IMG/VR virus record: IMGVR_UViG_2579778842_000017
Span: 1-64,000 of that record
Length of the DNA stretch: 64,000 nt
Source of the DNA: a virus
Lineage: Duplodnaviria > Heunggongvirae > Uroviricota > Caudoviricetes
Direction: 5' to 3' (one strand)
Position numbers and translations under genes: made by a program. The notes below the pieces were generated by a model, which was not told where the DNA came from, did no database searches, and saw only the letters and a list, made by a program, of their open reading frames with translations. Position 1 is the stretch's first letter; each line of letters opens with the position of its first letter. This document shows, one piece after another, positions 7,446-64,000 of this stretch.

Positions 7446-7502
7446 TTCACATTTACTGCATTTTCGCCGAAGTTACCTATAAGGTAATGTCACATTTCCT
7501 GC
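7446..7502. repeat. Two direct copies of TCACATTT(A/C)CTGCA upstream of the Panacea operon
   Basis: copies at 7446-7459 and 7489-7502 in the AT-rich intergenic region; candidate operator sites. Confidence 0.4.
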
Positions 7503-41412: not shown

Positions 41413-41762
41413 TGGACTATTCACAGTTAAGTGATTTTGAAATTAACAGAATGGTAGGAGACATAATTTTTAAAGGCCTTTGGGCATGTAAACCGGAAAC
41501 ATCAGGGAATAACACCAACAAATGGTATTACGGAAATGCTGATACAACTTTTGAGCCATTAAACCCTTTACCTGACTACTGCAATAATCCATCGGATGCA
41601 TGGCCTATTATTGTTGATAATAAAATCAGTCTAACCTGCCACCAATCTCGCGGTGAGTGGTCAGCTGTTTTTAATGCCGAGAACATTTGCTTTCATGCGA
41701 ATAATCCACTCCGAGCCGCCATGATTGTATTTCTCATGATGCAGGAAAATCAGAATGGCTAA
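41409..41762 (+). CDS. NinX/DUF2591-like protein, paralog of 27088-27456
   Basis: [13 protein letters not shown] ... [19 protein letters not shown]; same termini as the nin-region copy. Confidence 0.6.
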   Translation: MMDYSQLSDFEINRMVGDIIFKGLWACKPETSGNNTNKWYYGNADTTFEPLNPLPDYCNNPSDAWPIIVDNKISLTCHQSRGEWSAVFNAENICFHANNPLRAAMIVFLMMQENQNG

Positions 41763-42093
41763 ATCAGCAGCAGAGCGCAAAGCCGCTCAGAGAGCCAGAC
41801 AAGCTGCATCTGGTGTGCGTAAGCTGGAGATTGTGCTTGATGCTCAGGAAATTGAAATGCTGGAGCGTAACTGTGCCACGCGTCGCCCCGGGCGTGCGCC
41901 TTACGAATTTGGTGAGTATATAGCGTTACTGATCCGCCAGGATGATGCACGCGTGCACGGGCGTATAAAATCGATCAGCAGAAAACGTTGCGGTAAGTGC
42001 GGCGAGAGAGTTCCTGTGAATTCATGCCCGTGTAATGGTGACTCGCAATGCTGGGTGACTAAAGGCTGGCATGAAACGAAATTAATAGTGTGA
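41755..42093 (+). CDS. Small basic protein with C-terminal Cys cluster (zinc-finger-like), last gene before the second terminase
   Basis: 112 aa; basic helical N-terminus, CGKCGERVPVNSCPCNGDSQC; stop codon lies inside the GTGACATGTCAC palindrome. Confidence 0.5.
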   Translation: MAKSAAERKAAQRARQAASGVRKLEIVLDAQEIEMLERNCATRRPGRAPYEFGEYIALLIRQDDARVHGRIKSISRKRCGKCGERVPVNSCPCNGDSQCWVTKGWHETKLIV

Positions 42094-42168: not shown

Positions 42169-42211
42169 GCATGGTACTATTACCACAACGGTAACTATTA
42201 CCACGGTGGTT

Positions 42212-42808
42212 ATGATGCCTGCTGAACCTAAAACCTATAAACGCAAATCAACGCAATTTAAGCCACTAACAGCAATGCAGGAGGCTTATTGCCAGTCATA
42301 CATCAAAACGCCTGAAAACCAGACTCAGGCAGCGATTAACGCAGGATTCTCCCCAAATACAGCGGCAGTTAAAGCCAGTGTCATGATGCGCGATGAACGC
42401 ATTCAAAAACGGATTGCCGAGCTGATGGAGGAGCGCAACAAACGAATGCGCGTCAGTGCTGATTACGTTCTCATGCGCCTGGTGGAGATCGACCAGATGG
42501 ACGTGATTGATATCCTCAACGACGATGGGAGTCTTAAGCCAATCCGCGAGTGGCCGAAAATCTGGCGCACTACGCTTAGTGGCTTTGATCTGTCATCGAC
42601 CATCATGAACATGAACGAGGATTCGATAGAGACAATCCTCAAAAAAATTAAATGGCCTGACAAGATGAAGAACCTCGAACTGATTGGTAAGCACGTCGAC
42701 GTTAACGCGTTCAAAGAGCGCCTGGAGGTTTCCGGCACGGTCACCATCGCCGACCGCATGGCCGCCGCCCGGCGCCGCGTCATAGAGCAGGCTGGTGGTG
42801 AAGAATGA
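42212..42808 (+). CDS. Terminase small subunit (second virion module)
   Basis: about 200 aa from MMPAEPKTYKRK, directly upstream of and overlapping TerL; ORF track extends to a TTG at 42134. Confidence 0.7.
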   Translation: MMPAEPKTYKRKSTQFKPLTAMQEAYCQSYIKTPENQTQAAINAGFSPNTAAVKASVMMRDERIQKRIAELMEERNKRMRVSADYVLMRLVEIDQMDVIDILNDDGSLKPIREWPKIWRTTLSGFDLSSTIMNMNEDSIETILKKIKWPDKMKNLELIGKHVDVNAFKERLEVSGTVTIADRMAAARRRVIEQAGGEE

Positions 42809-44943: not shown

Positions 44944-45020
44944 TGGCGTGGCATGCAGGATTCGAACCTGCGACCAACCGCTTAGAAGGCGGTTGCTCTG
45001 TCCGACTGAGCTAATGCCAC
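44944..45020 (-). tRNA. Phage-borne tRNA-Arg (anticodon UCU)
   Basis: minus strand reads GTGGCATTAGCTCAGTCGGACAGAGCAACCGCCTTCTAAGCGGTTGGTCGCAGGTTCGAATCCTGCATGCCACGCCA: 7-bp acceptor stem, anticodon loop CTTCTAA, 3' CCA. Confidence 0.8.
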
Positions 45021-45447
45021 AACGCTGAGAGCACTTAGCCTGTTAAGGCACCACACTTTGTCGCGGCTCCATAAATGCTCTCATCGTTGTACCCTCGTCT
45101 CTTCCGAGGCGTCACACCGAATCGCCGGGATGGTGAATCCCCGTGCGCGGCATAAAACCGCTCGACTTGCACATTCCGGCTACCTGGTTCGTTTGCCCGA
45201 GCAAGGGAGGGTGCCCCTTAAACGTATCCAGACCGCTATCGGCGCATGTGCCATACGCCGTACTGCTCAAAATAAAAGCTCACTCCACCTGTTCAATTTA
45301 ACGACAAGCCAGTCAGGTTAATAACAGGAATGCACTCTATGCTTACCTGAAAGGTAATAATTCGTGCGTTAAATGTCAACTACCTACGATAAATAAATCA
45401 TATGTGGTTAAATTGGTAATAATTTAATTGCGTACGGAGTCATTGAT

Positions 45448-61435: not shown

Positions 61436-61849
61436 ATGAAGGAATTATTGCTGTTATCGGTATTTTTGATATCCGCTTGCTCGACATCCTATGATGTTTA
61501 TGACGGTGTTGATAAGGCATATTGCGACAAAGTTAAAATGGATTTTTCTCTTGCCAAGACGGCGAAGGATAGTTGTATTGATCACTACGTCAAGACTTAT
61601 ACCAAGCCAGCCTCATCGGCATCTGATATTGCTGAAGGTGCTGTGTTTGAGTGTAACAAGGTGATATCCATCGCAGCGAGTTCTTCATACGATGCTGCTG
61701 TATGTGCAATGGCTGAAAGAAACGGCATGTCAGTGCAAAAAATTAATAGCATGATAAGCAGTAATGACGAAGCCAAAATAAGAACTGATATCAGCTCGGT
61801 GAAAAAAGATGCCATGAACAGAGTTGTAAAATATCAGTCATCTTTATAA
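61436..61849 (+). CDS. Lipoprotein (candidate superinfection-exclusion protein)
   Basis: 137 aa, signal peptide with lipobox LISAC; lower GC than neighbours. Confidence 0.6.
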   Translation: MKELLLLSVFLISACSTSYDVYDGVDKAYCDKVKMDFSLAKTAKDSCIDHYVKTYTKPASSASDIAEGAVFECNKVISIAASSSYDAAVCAMAERNGMSVQKINSMISSNDEAKIRTDISSVKKDAMNRVVKYQSSL

Positions 61850-61852
61850 GTC

Positions 61853-61864
61853 GTGACATGTCAC
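61853..61864. repeat. Palindrome GTGACATGTCAC (copy 3)
   Basis: perfect copy right after the lipoprotein stop and before a terminator. Confidence 0.6.
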
Positions 61865-61890
61865 AGGCCGCTTTCGCGGCCTTGTTTTTA
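61865..61890 (+). terminator. Rho-independent terminator ending the virion operon
   Basis: AGGCCGCTTTCGCGGCCT then TGTTTTT. Confidence 0.7.
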
Positions 61891-62049
61891 ACGAATGCCA
61901 CCGCCACCCGGGCGGGAATCCGCAGAACGCCCACCGCAGCGGGAGCCGTCAGCAGCAGTGTCGCTGTCGTGCTGACAACGACCGGCAAAGGCCTGAGTTG
62001 AAGCTACCAGAGACAACAAAACGAACAGTGCAGCAAATGCTTTTTTCAT
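61888..62049 (-). CDS. Small secreted Gly/Arg-rich peptide
   Basis: 53 aa: Sec-type signal MKKAFAALFVLLSLVASTQAFA then 31-aa mature peptide with two Cys. Confidence 0.4.
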   Translation of the reverse strand: MKKAFAALFVLLSLVASTQAFAGRCQHDSDTAADGSRCGGRSADSRPGGGGIR

Positions 62050-62111
62050 TGTGAAATTTCCATCTATAAGCCACCTCAATGTGGCGTCAATGAGTGTTAG
62101 CACTGACTTTT

Positions 62112-62140
62112 GTTTCGTCCACAAAAAATCCCGCAGCGCG
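62112..62140 (-). terminator. Rho-independent terminator after the low-GC gene
   Basis: minus strand CCCGCGCTGCGGGATTTTTTG. Confidence 0.6.
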
Positions 62141-62143
62141 GGC

Positions 62144-62725
62144 TTATTCTTCTTCATCATTAAAAAGCGGATTGTTATTTCCATCTGATGAAAGGAAAGG
62201 TATGTGTTCTCTTGAAAATCCAACAATGACAATTTCATTATCATTTTTTGCATAATGAATGCATTCATTAGAATGCATTCCGCCAGGGTTGAAATTTAAG
62301 TTAATGGTATAATTCTTAAATGTGTTTGGATACCATGTTGGCCCACAATGATAATGCCAATAATTCTCTTGCTCATAATTGTCTGAGCCGGGAATTTTAT
62401 CATGGTTATCATCAACCCACGAGGGCTTGTTTTTTCCAACAAGCGCCCTTCCATTGGCAACATCCTCTAAAAAACTTTGTATGATTTTTATTTCATCATC
62501 AGTAAGGAAAGGTCCGTCTACAGCGAAAGGGGTGTTGCTTTCCCCATGTAGAAAACTATTAGATATTCTAATGTTAAACTTCAAGGAAAACTCCTGATGT
62601 GCTTCTATTTGGAGCGAAATGCCGCCTTGAAGTCGCTGAAAGATGTTCCTGTCTGGTAAACCATATCCTTGTCGCGCTCTTTGCTTGCGCGGCCAAGCAT
62701 AACTTTTCCAATGACATCCCAGCAT
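62144..62725 (-). CDS. Low-GC hypothetical protein (horizontally acquired moron)
   Basis: AT-rich codon usage unlike surroundings; possible alternative TTG start near 62584 after CAGGAG. Confidence 0.5.
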   Translation of the reverse strand: MLGCHWKSYAWPRKQRARQGYGLPDRNIFQRLQGGISLQIEAHQEFSLKFNIRISNSFLHGESNTPFAVDGPFLTDDEIKIIQSFLEDVANGRALVGKNKPSWVDDNHDKIPGSDNYEQENYWHYHCGPTWYPNTFKNYTINLNFNPGGMHSNECIHYAKNDNEIVIVGFSREHIPFLSSDGNNNPLFNDEEE

Positions 62726-62872
62726 TGCTTGGCTTGTTCATTGTGCTGAGTACGATTTTTCAACGCTGTCATATCGCGCCTCCTTTACCTTTAAGGTAAT
62801 AGTACGCTATTCACCCACAGTCTGCAATCTGTACAGAATTATTTAAAGGCACATCCCTGTGCCGCCGTTCTG

Positions 62873-63598
62873 TCAGAAGAACCCTGCCTTGTCGTTGATG
62901 TACTCCGCGTGCGTCTGGATATCACGCAGGCATTTGCTCACACCGACGATGTAGCAGAACATGGTGGTCAGCTCCGCCGCCGCGCCAGATACGTCGTGCC
63001 CGTCGTCCTGCAACTGGTTCAGCAGATTCATCAGCAGTGAGTTCTCCGTCAGGCCGAGAACACCAGACGGCGAGTGAATCAGGCTGCGGTAGCCGGGCTT
63101 CAGTGGGGCACTGTAGGTTTTGTTCTCTATCTTCATTGCCTGTATTACTGCTGACGCCGTGGCGTTGGCTACCTGGTCGGCAACCATCTTTATGCGTTCT
63201 TCCTGCGGGAGCGAGTCTTTAATGTAACTTCCGGTGCGGCGGATCTGAGGAAGAACCTCACCTGTAACCCATTTACGAAAGCGGTAGGGGATAGTGCCTG
63301 GTGTCACCGCATCGCGGCAGCGGAGGATCAGTGTGTAGAGGCCTGACTCGGAGATGATGTTGAGCTCTTTTACTCGGCTATCAAAAATTGCACGATGTTC
63401 ATGCCCTATGTTGAACATAGACCTTTCATCATCATCCAGTTTTTCAAGTGATTGGGTGACGTTTTGGATACGCAGCGCACTACAAACGTCTTGGGCTACA
63501 AACCATGGTTGGCCATCGATAATGATGGAACGGATAGGGTTAACAGATTCAAATTTGAAGATGGCAGTTTGAGCATTAGCCATGGTGGTTATCTCCAC
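62873..63598 (-). CDS. Bro-N domain protein (antirepressor-like)
   Basis: N-terminal FESVNPIRSIIIDGQPWFVAQDVCSAL ... LPQIRRTG matches the Bro-N domain; start likely MANAQTAIF. Confidence 0.65.
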   Translation of the reverse strand: MEITTMANAQTAIFKFESVNPIRSIIIDGQPWFVAQDVCSALRIQNVTQSLEKLDDDERSMFNIGHEHRAIFDSRVKELNIISESGLYTLILRCRDAVTPGTIPYRFRKWVTGEVLPQIRRTGSYIKDSLPQEERIKMVADQVANATASAVIQAMKIENKTYSAPLKPGYRSLIHSPSGVLGLTENSLLMNLLNQLQDDGHDVSGAAAELTTMFCYIVGVSKCLRDIQTHAEYINDKAGFF

Positions 63599-64000
63599 TT
63601 AGTGATTTTAATCACCACCGCAACGCCAATTACTGGTGGTGAACTGGACAAGGTTGGCGTACCGGCCTAAGTGGTACCGGCGTCCTTTCGGACCCCTGCC
63701 CAGCCCACCATAATTCGGATATGGCTGTGCTTAACGCATAAAAAAACCACGTCTGGCGTGGTATGCGCCACTTAGTAACTCGGGACGCCAATCCCGGCAC
63801 TGGATTTTTCCAGTGCCCGATTACTATGGCACAAGAGGAGTGCGATGTAAATTTACCGCAAAGGTAAATATAAGCACTCCACTTGGTAATTGCAAACCTT
63901 ATCTGGTTTGTTTTCGTAATTGTTCGGCACAATAGTCGAGATGTGTTTGCAGATCCCGCATAGACATCTGTGAGCTGGTGACGTAGTTAATCAGTGCAGT

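Follow-up and report, generated by a model that had tools for sequence, protein, structure and literature searches.

The region described here covers positions 61436 to 63598 of a 64,000-nucleotide stretch (the window) of the viral record IMGVR_UViG_2579778842_000017 and contains five genes on which the Prokaryotic Genome Annotation Pipeline (PGAP) and an open reading frame (ORF) scan agree, encoding proteins of 137, 53, 146, 55 and 236 amino acids (aa). Two of these, the 146-aa protein T146 and the 55-aa protein A55, are encoded by an exchangeable cassette lying between the gene for a 53-aa pre-peptide and a Bro-N antirepressor gene (ant), and we think it reasonably likely that this cassette represents a new sequence family, a toxin-antitoxin-like module of RelE/ParE fold in a prophage hotspot consisting of a toxin and a neutralising partner. 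The cassette is the new part and the rest of the region is mostly ordinary. All five proteins match PHROG families (E 1e-39 to 1e-91), only the 236-aa protein contains a Pfam domain (Bro-N) and none of the five has a PADLOC v2 match at E<=1, leaving the 53-, 146- and 55-aa proteins with no credible match in Pfam, NCBIfam or PADLOC. UMNK88-type genomes label the 55- and 146-aa genes only as hypothetical, an annotation corrected here, and small plasmids omit the partner ORF.

The 2.6-kb stretch is a 100% match to the chromosome of Escherichia coli UMNK88 and parts of it are present in 565 of 5426 complete E. coli genomes. The nearest phage records are HEMP4, phiv142-3, TL-2011b, ZX5 and phiV10, which are phiV10/epsilon15-like podoviruses (the genus Uetakevirus is assigned to them only where the record states a genus). 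In the RefSeq record three large internal/ejection-protein genes precede the region; an 85-aa gene comes after it, then the genes for the tailspike, two holins, a GH19 endolysin and a DUF2514 spanin-like protein, and finally host yfgI. An earlier reading made from the sequence alone (the sequence-only reading) had taken the region for the right end of the prophage, which is wrong because the tailspike and lysis genes are still downstream and host yfgI is reached only after them. The region is an inter-operon stretch leading from the virion core genes to the tailspike, and the description we favour is of an immI-like accessory and regulatory part, made up of independent modules, of a phiV10/epsilon15-like prophage integrated beside yfgI/guaA.

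T146 and its partner A55

The sequence-only reading had pointed to a markedly AT-rich gene of 150-190 aa with its own terminator. The composition (34.9% GC) and the terminator-like hairpin (62142-62130) stand, while the length has to be revised to 146 aa from a TTG start at 62584, the position from which T146 homologues align. The A55 gene was overlooked in that reading. Within this one cassette it has 47% GC (54% at third codon positions, GC3) against 35% (GC3 29%) for the T146 gene. A TTG or GTG start is found in all 17 distinct T146 sequences of the enterobacterial clade with short partners (16 TTG, 1 GTG), and such a conserved weak start fits a product kept scarcer than its partner. In phage phiv142-3 (MN187550; locus L004, 2794-3231) a 52-aa 'Orf10' is annotated where an intact 146-aa gene sits that is 98.6% identical to the one described here.

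T146 and A55 form a conserved two-gene module. T146 was accompanied by A55 in nine of nine loci of the slot survey described below, and the pair is adjacent in diverged homologues too. We gathered about 100 loci with T146 homologues from genomes and IMG/VR viral contigs (the toxin ORF could not be delimited in seven), and in nearly all of them the T146 homologue is directly preceded by a same-strand ORF, the distance between partner and toxin being -23 to +31 nucleotides (nt) in every locus but the two most distant. The partner measures 55-65 aa in the E. coli/Pectobacterium/Serratia-type clade, 62 aa in small plasmids, 92-121 aa in the Erwinia and Klebsiella types and 159-211 aa in Pasteurellaceae and Kingella, and the partners of these groups end in a shared C-terminal motif of approximately hhLxR-x(6-9)-[YF]-x(3)-[SG]x[ST]h[DE][DE]hhxA, ahead of which A55 has an N-terminus of only ~15 residues. 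A hidden Markov model (HMM) of the short partners, run against 5059 ORFs of the T146 loci, retrieved upstream ORFs only, the long Klebsiella types included, and on iteration reached all enterobacterial partner types and none of the Pasteurellaceae ones, whose C-termini align with those of the enterobacterial partners over 37 columns (hhalign E 1.1e-4). Four distant homologues (Aeromonas-type, Enterobacter adelaidei) are preceded by ORFs of 66-71 aa, which the partner HMM did not match.

A pair of toxin/immunity type thus seems to be present, as T146 with A55, but not the pair first suggested, in which the secreted peptide of 53 aa and the unknown protein beside it could be toxin and immunity or a signalling pair. 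Their genes are indeed neighbours on one strand; however a strong terminator separates the peptide gene from the cassette, and the peptide is a constant element of the region that does not co-vary with T146, being 100% identical beside at least eight different cassettes, standing with a YafO pair in TL-2011b and with other content in Klebsiella phages, while T146 occurs in many genomes that have no peptide. We therefore regard a functional peptide-T146 pair as very improbable.

T146 homologues formed 36 clusters in a word-indexed search, all labelled 'hypothetical' and from Enterobacterales and Pasteurellaceae, and when 1.8 billion representatives were searched in full with a profile, 118 were found. 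Among 92 diverged members three residues (H77, H79 and H127) never vary, and seven more (G50, N52, K53, S55, Y78, Y111 and F130) are near-invariant. The predicted model of T146 is confident and its nearest structures are RelE, YafQ, YoeB and ParE toxins. On this model T146 is a sequence-orphan family with a predicted RelE-type core, a longer N-terminus and two insertions, the latter features being read from a secondary-structure map. YafQ itself uses His50, His87 and Phe91 (PMC7781912). Alignments by hhalign, themselves not significant, place the GKNKPS of T146 on the GKGKPE loop of YoeB and its WHYH on the RHTH of YafO.

Membership of the YafO family was considered and rejected, with motif parallels visible by eye set against Pfam matches in none of the 92 members and an hhalign E of 0.15, which leaves a positional analogy only. 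T146 has no Pfam or NCBIfam match and none to YafO_toxin at E<=1, and a query with K-12 YafO retrieved no viral loci.

Several results weigh against the toxin-antitoxin interpretation. The call of a RelE-type fold is a predicted structure, for which Foldseek E-values were not significant (best 0.26) and a Foldseek search of BFVD gave nothing. At the sequence level none of the 92 members had a Pfam hit at E<=0.01, the family profile gave spurious matches only against PDB sequences, and hhalign comparisons were not significant with the YafO alignment (E 0.15, probability <1%) or with YafQ, RelE and YoeB (E 0.02-0.5, each as a single sequence). The invariant residues are known from the alignment. 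T146 is ~55 residues larger than classical RelE toxins, and its close relatives are acidic (pI 4.5-7.0, median 5.0 for 30 aligned; 4.8-10.7 in the wider family), so that an acidic T146 with a basic A55 (pI 9.8) is the reverse of RelE/RelB. In A55 no DNA-binding domain could be recognised and no Pfam hit came up even at E<=10, and neither protein has a PADLOC match. The toxicity of T146 and its neutralisation by A55 are inferred, as is the RNase chemistry.

Another idea is that T146 is a non-toxic accessory protein whose likeness to RelE reflects no more than a shared small alpha/beta fold, for example a metal- or nucleic-acid-binding one built on the His/Cys cluster, with A55 as an unrelated regulator. 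We consider this distinctly unlikely. In the toxin-antitoxin interpretation T146, with its RelE/YafQ/YoeB-type fold and its three invariant His plus Lys and Tyr, would most likely be an mRNA endonuclease that arrests growth when a labile partner is lost, and A55 would neutralise it through the conserved C-terminal ~37 residues. The result would be retention of the prophage or plasmid, or abortive infection. Should T146 prove toxic and neutralisable, it would represent a sequence-orphan branch of RelE/ParE that is larger, carries three invariant His and comes with a portable C-terminal neutralisation motif.

A cassette hotspot behind a shared upstream block

Exchange of the cassette is observed directly. 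Homology of TL-2011b to the window extends up to 62167 and begins again from 62784, so the exchanged block (62168-62783) is exactly two genes, and the slot of TL-2011b contains a 59-aa gene and a YafO-family toxin (PF13957, 26.3 bits) instead. The UMNK88-type cassette is present in 77 and the YafO cassette in 61 of the 5426 E. coli genomes. In order to survey the slot we used 80 viral contigs with an identical peptide gene and classed the ant-to-peptide interval by size and content, which gave at least eight alternative low-GC cassette classes of 0.7-1.3 kb. These are a membrane-protein pair (62 and 110 aa), A55 with T146, a DUF4760 protein, a 210-aa protein, a 59-aa protein with YafO, a 113-aa protein with DUF2335, a 108-aa protein with a second YafO-like protein, and proteins of 69 and 288 aa. 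None matches PADLOC v2. The hairpin at 62142-62130 is kept downstream of nearly all classes.

On the upstream side six of the eight classes have in common a block of a hairpin, the promoter-like sequence TTGCAG-N17-TACTAT and the palindrome TTACC-N5-GGTAA, and the palindrome itself lies upstream of all eight with small variations. This 15-bp palindrome occurs seven times in the window against 0.93 expected and 14 times in phiV10 against 0.63 expected. In the window its sites closely precede terS and also precede the portal region, and others lie at the ant promoter, between the 85-aa gene and the tailspike and at the cassette slot; more widely it marks the starts of many transcription units, also those of holin and int and both sides of the phiV10 repressor gene (a divergent region), often directly after a -10-like TACTAT or TATATT. 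It probably serves as the operator for a phage regulator whose sites are scattered, as those of P1 C1 are. A similar repeat may have been noted in the epsilon15 genome paper. Homology to phiV10 starts in the window at 41755-42093, directly upstream of terS, with the gene for a 112-aa protein whose N-terminus is basic and whose C-terminus is rich in Cys. Over the 93 of its 112 residues that align, this protein and the phiV10 p55 'transcriptional regulator' are 100% identical; it is a candidate for a late regulator and might bind the palindrome.

Since cassette classes share the upstream block and the palindrome recurs at other phage promoters, control of the cassette by a phage regulator is more probable than autoregulation, and a lytic-phase role is conceivable. 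It also tempers the toxin-antitoxin interpretation, as the shared palindrome may silence the cassette in lysogens. The proposal of the sequence-only reading that these genes are independently acquired cargo can be kept in so far as the low-GC genes assort independently among sibling phages, but not for the transcription of the cassette, which has no private promoter and a shared upstream block.

These features form the case for T146/A55 as a lytic-phase effector, rather than an addiction-type pair, in which T146 would be an RNase made only after derepression, on induction or superinfection, to shut off host or competitor mRNA with A55 as a timing inhibitor or chaperone. The cassette lacks a promoter of its own, all eight classes keep the palindrome and most share the hairpin and promoter-like block; occurrence of the palindrome at promoters of terS, portal, tailspike and ant, as well as around the phiV10 repressor gene, suggests control by a phage regulator, and A55 has no DNA-binding domain with which to autoregulate. 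However phiV10 is viable without the cassette, and the pair occurs without the phage block on 3-kb plasmids and beside AbiTii as well as at unrelated phage positions, all of which fits an autonomous module. We therefore hold a purely lytic-phase role to be unlikely.

The module was found elsewhere in a variety of settings. Pairs of the T146/A55 type lie in the nin region of Klebsiella lambdoid prophages, and T146-type pairs behind the gene for a MuF polyvalent protein in one Pasteurellaceae genome and between tape-measure and baseplate genes in Haemophilus, and the T146 family was also found in prophages of Pasteurellaceae, Aeromonas and Neisseriaceae. The pair is present on 37 plasmids, many of only 2.6-4.6 kb, and in both of the small plasmids inspected (L250/L251) the 62-aa partner ORF is unannotated. 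In a contig of Aeromonas salmonicida ATCC 33658 (locus L023, 2052-5342) the pair is flanked by an NYN-domain RNase and AbiTii. There AbiTii overlaps the 3' end of the pair and a KfrA-like gene is near, and the locus looks like a small defence or plasmid island.

A role in anti-phage abortive infection, in which shut-off of host expression by an infecting phage would free T146 from A55 and the slot would be a defence hotspot, is a possibility that we rate below the general toxin-antitoxin interpretation. It draws on the presence of at least eight low-GC cassettes at one locus (including two YafO-like pairs, DUF4760 and DUF2335), on the position of the pair beside AbiTii and an NYN RNase in Aeromonas and on its carriage by prophages and small plasmids; however none of the cassettes matches PADLOC v2, and the idea is a sub-case of the toxin-antitoxin interpretation, with the same mechanism and a different benefit, rather than a true alternative to it.

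The hotspot slot lies directly downstream of the antirepressor, behind the phage-conserved promoter-like site and palindrome, and is here occupied by the two-gene cassette. A bolder form of the proposal, that the slot is a regulator-wired cassette hotspot of Uetakevirus and that T146/A55 founds an undescribed family of RelE-fold RNase toxin-antitoxin or abortive-infection modules, spread over phages and ~3-kb plasmids and, through coupling to the switch of the phage itself, firing in the prophage on superinfection or induction, is put forward tentatively and we are more inclined to doubt than to accept it. Literature searches gave no match for the protein accessions, nor for a described Uetakevirus toxin-antitoxin pair or hotspot. 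The locus is compact and sharp-edged, it is carried by common E. coli and Klebsiella prophages and its uncharacterised cassettes can be mined for phage defence.

The antirepressor and its RNA control

The Bro-N protein named by the sequence-only reading is upheld as a PF02498 antirepressor (Ant); the gene was taken to end at 63598, the GTG with which the longest ORF begins and a position within the Shine-Dalgarno region, and its start is the ATG at 63583. Ant is 79% identical to ORF4 of phage ZX5, rising to ~98% over the C-terminal two-thirds, and the two genes have the same genomic position. Overexpression of ZX5 ORF4 pushed the phage towards lytic growth (PMC9782041), and by homology Ant would promote lytic growth by inactivating the prophage repressor.

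Just outside the region, at 63632-63829, are regulatory RNAs comprising a full-length match to the C4 antisense RNA and an IsrK-like leader (Table 1). The model for the a1/b1 target (RF03163) also matched at 63829-63777 with 40.9 bits, below its gathering cutoff of 46.7. Box a (TTGGCGT, 7 nt) is found at 63791-63785 and again at 63629-63623, and box b (CTAAGTGG, 8 nt) at 63775-63768 and again at 63602-63595. Exact complements of both lie within the C4 RNA, b' (63674-63667) in a hairpin loop and a' (63660-63654) in a single-stranded part. The b2 box overlaps the GGAG Shine-Dalgarno of Ant and its last base is 11 nt before the ATG. The 157-nt stretch from the IsrK terminator to the Ant start is overlapped by ORFs of 34 and 100 aa. 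Precedent for an IsrK RNA with an antirepressor is provided by isrK-orf45-anrP of Salmonella Gifsy-1 (PMC4825925).

The Bro-N gene is an RNA-controlled antirepressor, and this is known biology. The IsrK-like leader and the C4 RNA would start one minus-strand operon in which a' and b' of C4 pair with a2 and b2 over the Ant ribosome-binding site, and Ant would thereby be kept untranslated in the lysogen and on release would inactivate the prophage repressor. Antirepressor and C4 are textbook biology whose value here is that they explain the wiring of the region.

TL-2011b carries a P22-type Arc and Ant pair, with a second antirepressor, where the lipoprotein described below would be. The last 258 nt of this second ant (locus L002, 2232-2488) match the 3' end of the Bro-N gene (window 62849-63106) at 94.6% identity and run in the opposite orientation, and since the 3' ends are so alike the two antirepressors share a C-terminal domain, which is presumably the part that binds the repressor.

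Flanking genes and relation to known systems

The 53-aa peptide gene lies on the opposite strand to the virion operon (61888-62049) and encodes, as the sequence-only reading had recognised, a putative Sec signal, which we read by eye as MKK-AFAALFVLLSLVAS-TQAFA with cleavage before the following G and which is kept in Klebsiella homologues. The peptide matches phrog_14503 (E 2.3e-40). Of 273 viral contigs that carry it, at least 80 have an identical copy, and three Klebsiella phages, of which two are recorded as Uetakevirus, encode versions of 82-86% identity. Annotation was inspected for two of these Klebsiella phages, and in both the gene keeps its map position amid quite different neighbours. 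Between E. coli and Klebsiella the proportion of synonymous differences (pS) is 0.73-0.77, with synonymous sites nearly saturated, and that of nonsynonymous differences (pN) only 0.11-0.13, and on this contrast it is a real gene under strong purifying selection and not a chance reading frame.

The promoter described upstream of it as TTGACG-N17-TATAGA is there in its hexamers; the spacer is N16, the -10 lacks the conserved final T, 13 nt separate it from the ATG, and the site is weak and uncalled by a consensus scan. It is conserved beside all cassette types. No family match to the peptide was found in Pfam or NCBIfam even at E<=10, apart from two NCBIfam matches (E 0.07-0.16) far below their cutoffs, and a possible likeness to Excalibur/DUF3761-type Cys motifs found no support. 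The separately terminated gene would yield a 31-aa periplasmic peptide whose two Cys could form a disulfide, and an envelope-level or exclusion role is our guess. As phiV10 has neither the cassette nor most of the peptide gene and is viable, both are accessory.

The lower-GC lipoprotein gene noted after the virion operon was borne out (61436-61849 on the plus strand, 39.4% GC against 50.6%). Its lipobox LISA with Cys15 (MKELLLLSVFLISA before C15) was read from the sequence by eye and conforms to the rule [LVI][ASTVI][GAS]C, and the protein has four Cys besides C15 and matches phrog_8691 (E 1.6e-91). The gene begins 9 nt past the final ejection-protein gene and has a terminator behind it, a low-GC gene riding at the end of the late operon. 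It is present in 22 of the 5426 E. coli genomes and in 25 viral contigs at 95-100% identity, had no tblastn match in the phage records and assorts independently of cassette type. In sibling phages its position holds a 118-aa ORF, the Arc and Ant pair or a 46-aa membrane protein instead. The lipoprotein is a narrow-range moron, for which a role in superinfection exclusion is possible as speculation. A single-sequence AlphaFold2 model gave a helical bundle of low confidence (predicted local distance difference test 67), and the family candidates, all weak, were T4 Spackle (E 0.82) and linker histone (below cutoff). An Rfam match to Trp_leader at 62121-62228 (E 0.79) was discarded as chance.

Elsewhere in the window a tRNA-Arg (tct) lies at 44944-45020 on the minus strand, within the prophage, with terL on one side and the portal region on the other. 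A second tRNA-Arg (cct), at 1009-1083 on the plus strand, adjoins an integrase-like ORF (1245-2387) of unrelated type, a sign that the window may open with a second integrative element. The early region appears mosaic, since no match in the window was obtained for p40, the repressor of phiV10, or for the further early proteins used as queries, and the phiV10 integrase has a 29%-identical match only, at 1245-2387.

Table 1 Features of the region and of the adjoining regulatory RNAs, with positions in the window; GC content is given for genes, for which that of the virion operon (50.6%) is the reference (CDS, coding sequence)
Feature	Position	Strand	GC (%)	Basis or remark
137-aa lipoprotein gene	61436-61849	+	39.4	ORF, PGAP CDS; last gene after ejection-protein operon
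Terminator-like hairpin, ends late/lipoprotein transcript	61865-61882	+		Scan; 7-bp stem, 6 GC pairs, T-run
53-aa pre-peptide gene	61888-62049	-	57.4	PGAP CDS; putative Sec signal and 31-aa mature peptide with two Cys (GRCQHDSDTAADGSRCGGRSADSRPGGGGIR)
Weak promoter-like TTGACG-N16-TATAGA upstream of peptide gene	62063-62090	-		Sequence; outside consensus-scan calls
Terminator-like hairpin after T146 gene, right edge of swappable cassette	62130-62142	-		Scan
146-aa protein T146, toxin-like, predicted RelE/ParE fold	62144-62584	-	34.9	TTG start at 62584
55-aa partner A55, putative antitoxin	62605-62772	-	47.0	PGAP CDS; phrog_8607; strong AAGGAGG Shine-Dalgarno
Shared upstream block of slot	62785-62827	-		Promoter-like TTGCAG-N17-TACTAT 62827-62799; palindrome TTACC-N5-GGTAA 62785-62799
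236-aa Bro-N antirepressor (Ant)	62873-63583	-	51.9	PF02498, E 4.7e-19, 69.2 bits vs cutoff 25.6; phrog_130 Ant
C4 target boxes a2 (63629-63623) and b2 (63602-63595)	63595-63629	-		Exact complementarity to a' and b'
C4-type antisense RNA	63632-63715	-		Rfam RF01695, 66 bits vs gathering 45, E 6e-12, full-length 1-87
IsrK-like leader RNA with a1/b1 boxes, terminator 63762-63746	63740-63829	-		RF01394, 66 bits vs gathering 50, match 63816-63740
Promoter-like TTTACA-N17-CATAGT and second palindrome (63853-63867)	63823-63867	-		-10 ends at 63823, 7 nt upstream of IsrK match start 63816
Palindrome sites listed in the window	62785-62799, 63853-63867, 42180-42194, 42198-42212, 45343-45357, 7473-7487

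The region can be compared with several known systems. The immI region of P22 has the equivalent position between virion core genes and tailspike. As in the immI of P1/P7 (c4-icd-ant) and in Gifsy-1, a C4 RNA and an IsrK leader lie upstream of the antirepressor on the same strand, with boxes a1/b1, a'/b' and a2/b2. In contrast to these, b2 here overlaps the Shine-Dalgarno of the Bro-N gene itself (no search for a coupling ORF was made), the antirepressor is of Bro-N type, the operon runs into a cassette slot and the host phage is a Uetakevirus podovirus. In ZX5, where ORF4 has the same position and is nearly identical over its C-terminal two-thirds, the N-terminal Bro-N domain has diverged and the slot holds a cassette of a 108-aa protein and DUF2335.

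For the cassette the closest relatives by predicted structure within the RelE/ParE superfamily are YafQ of DinJ-YafQ, YoeB of YefM-YoeB and archaeal RelE, with none of which T146 has significant sequence or profile similarity. The RelE/ParE toxins measure 84-95 aa against 146 aa for T146, which has insertions at ~57-74 and 80-107 and a longer N-terminus, and unlike them the E. coli T146 is acidic and its partner lacks a recognisable DNA-binding domain. The minimal antitoxin of PaaA2-ParE2 from an E. coli O157 prophage has no sequence relation to A55, and the cassette here has no third regulator gene. As for YafN-YafO (PF13957), YafO-family pairs hold the identical slot in sibling prophages with junctions at the cassette edges, and the order of motifs (GK[DN].., [RW]H.H, h[VH]Y, ..H) is parallel by eye between YafO and T146 with no profile match between them.

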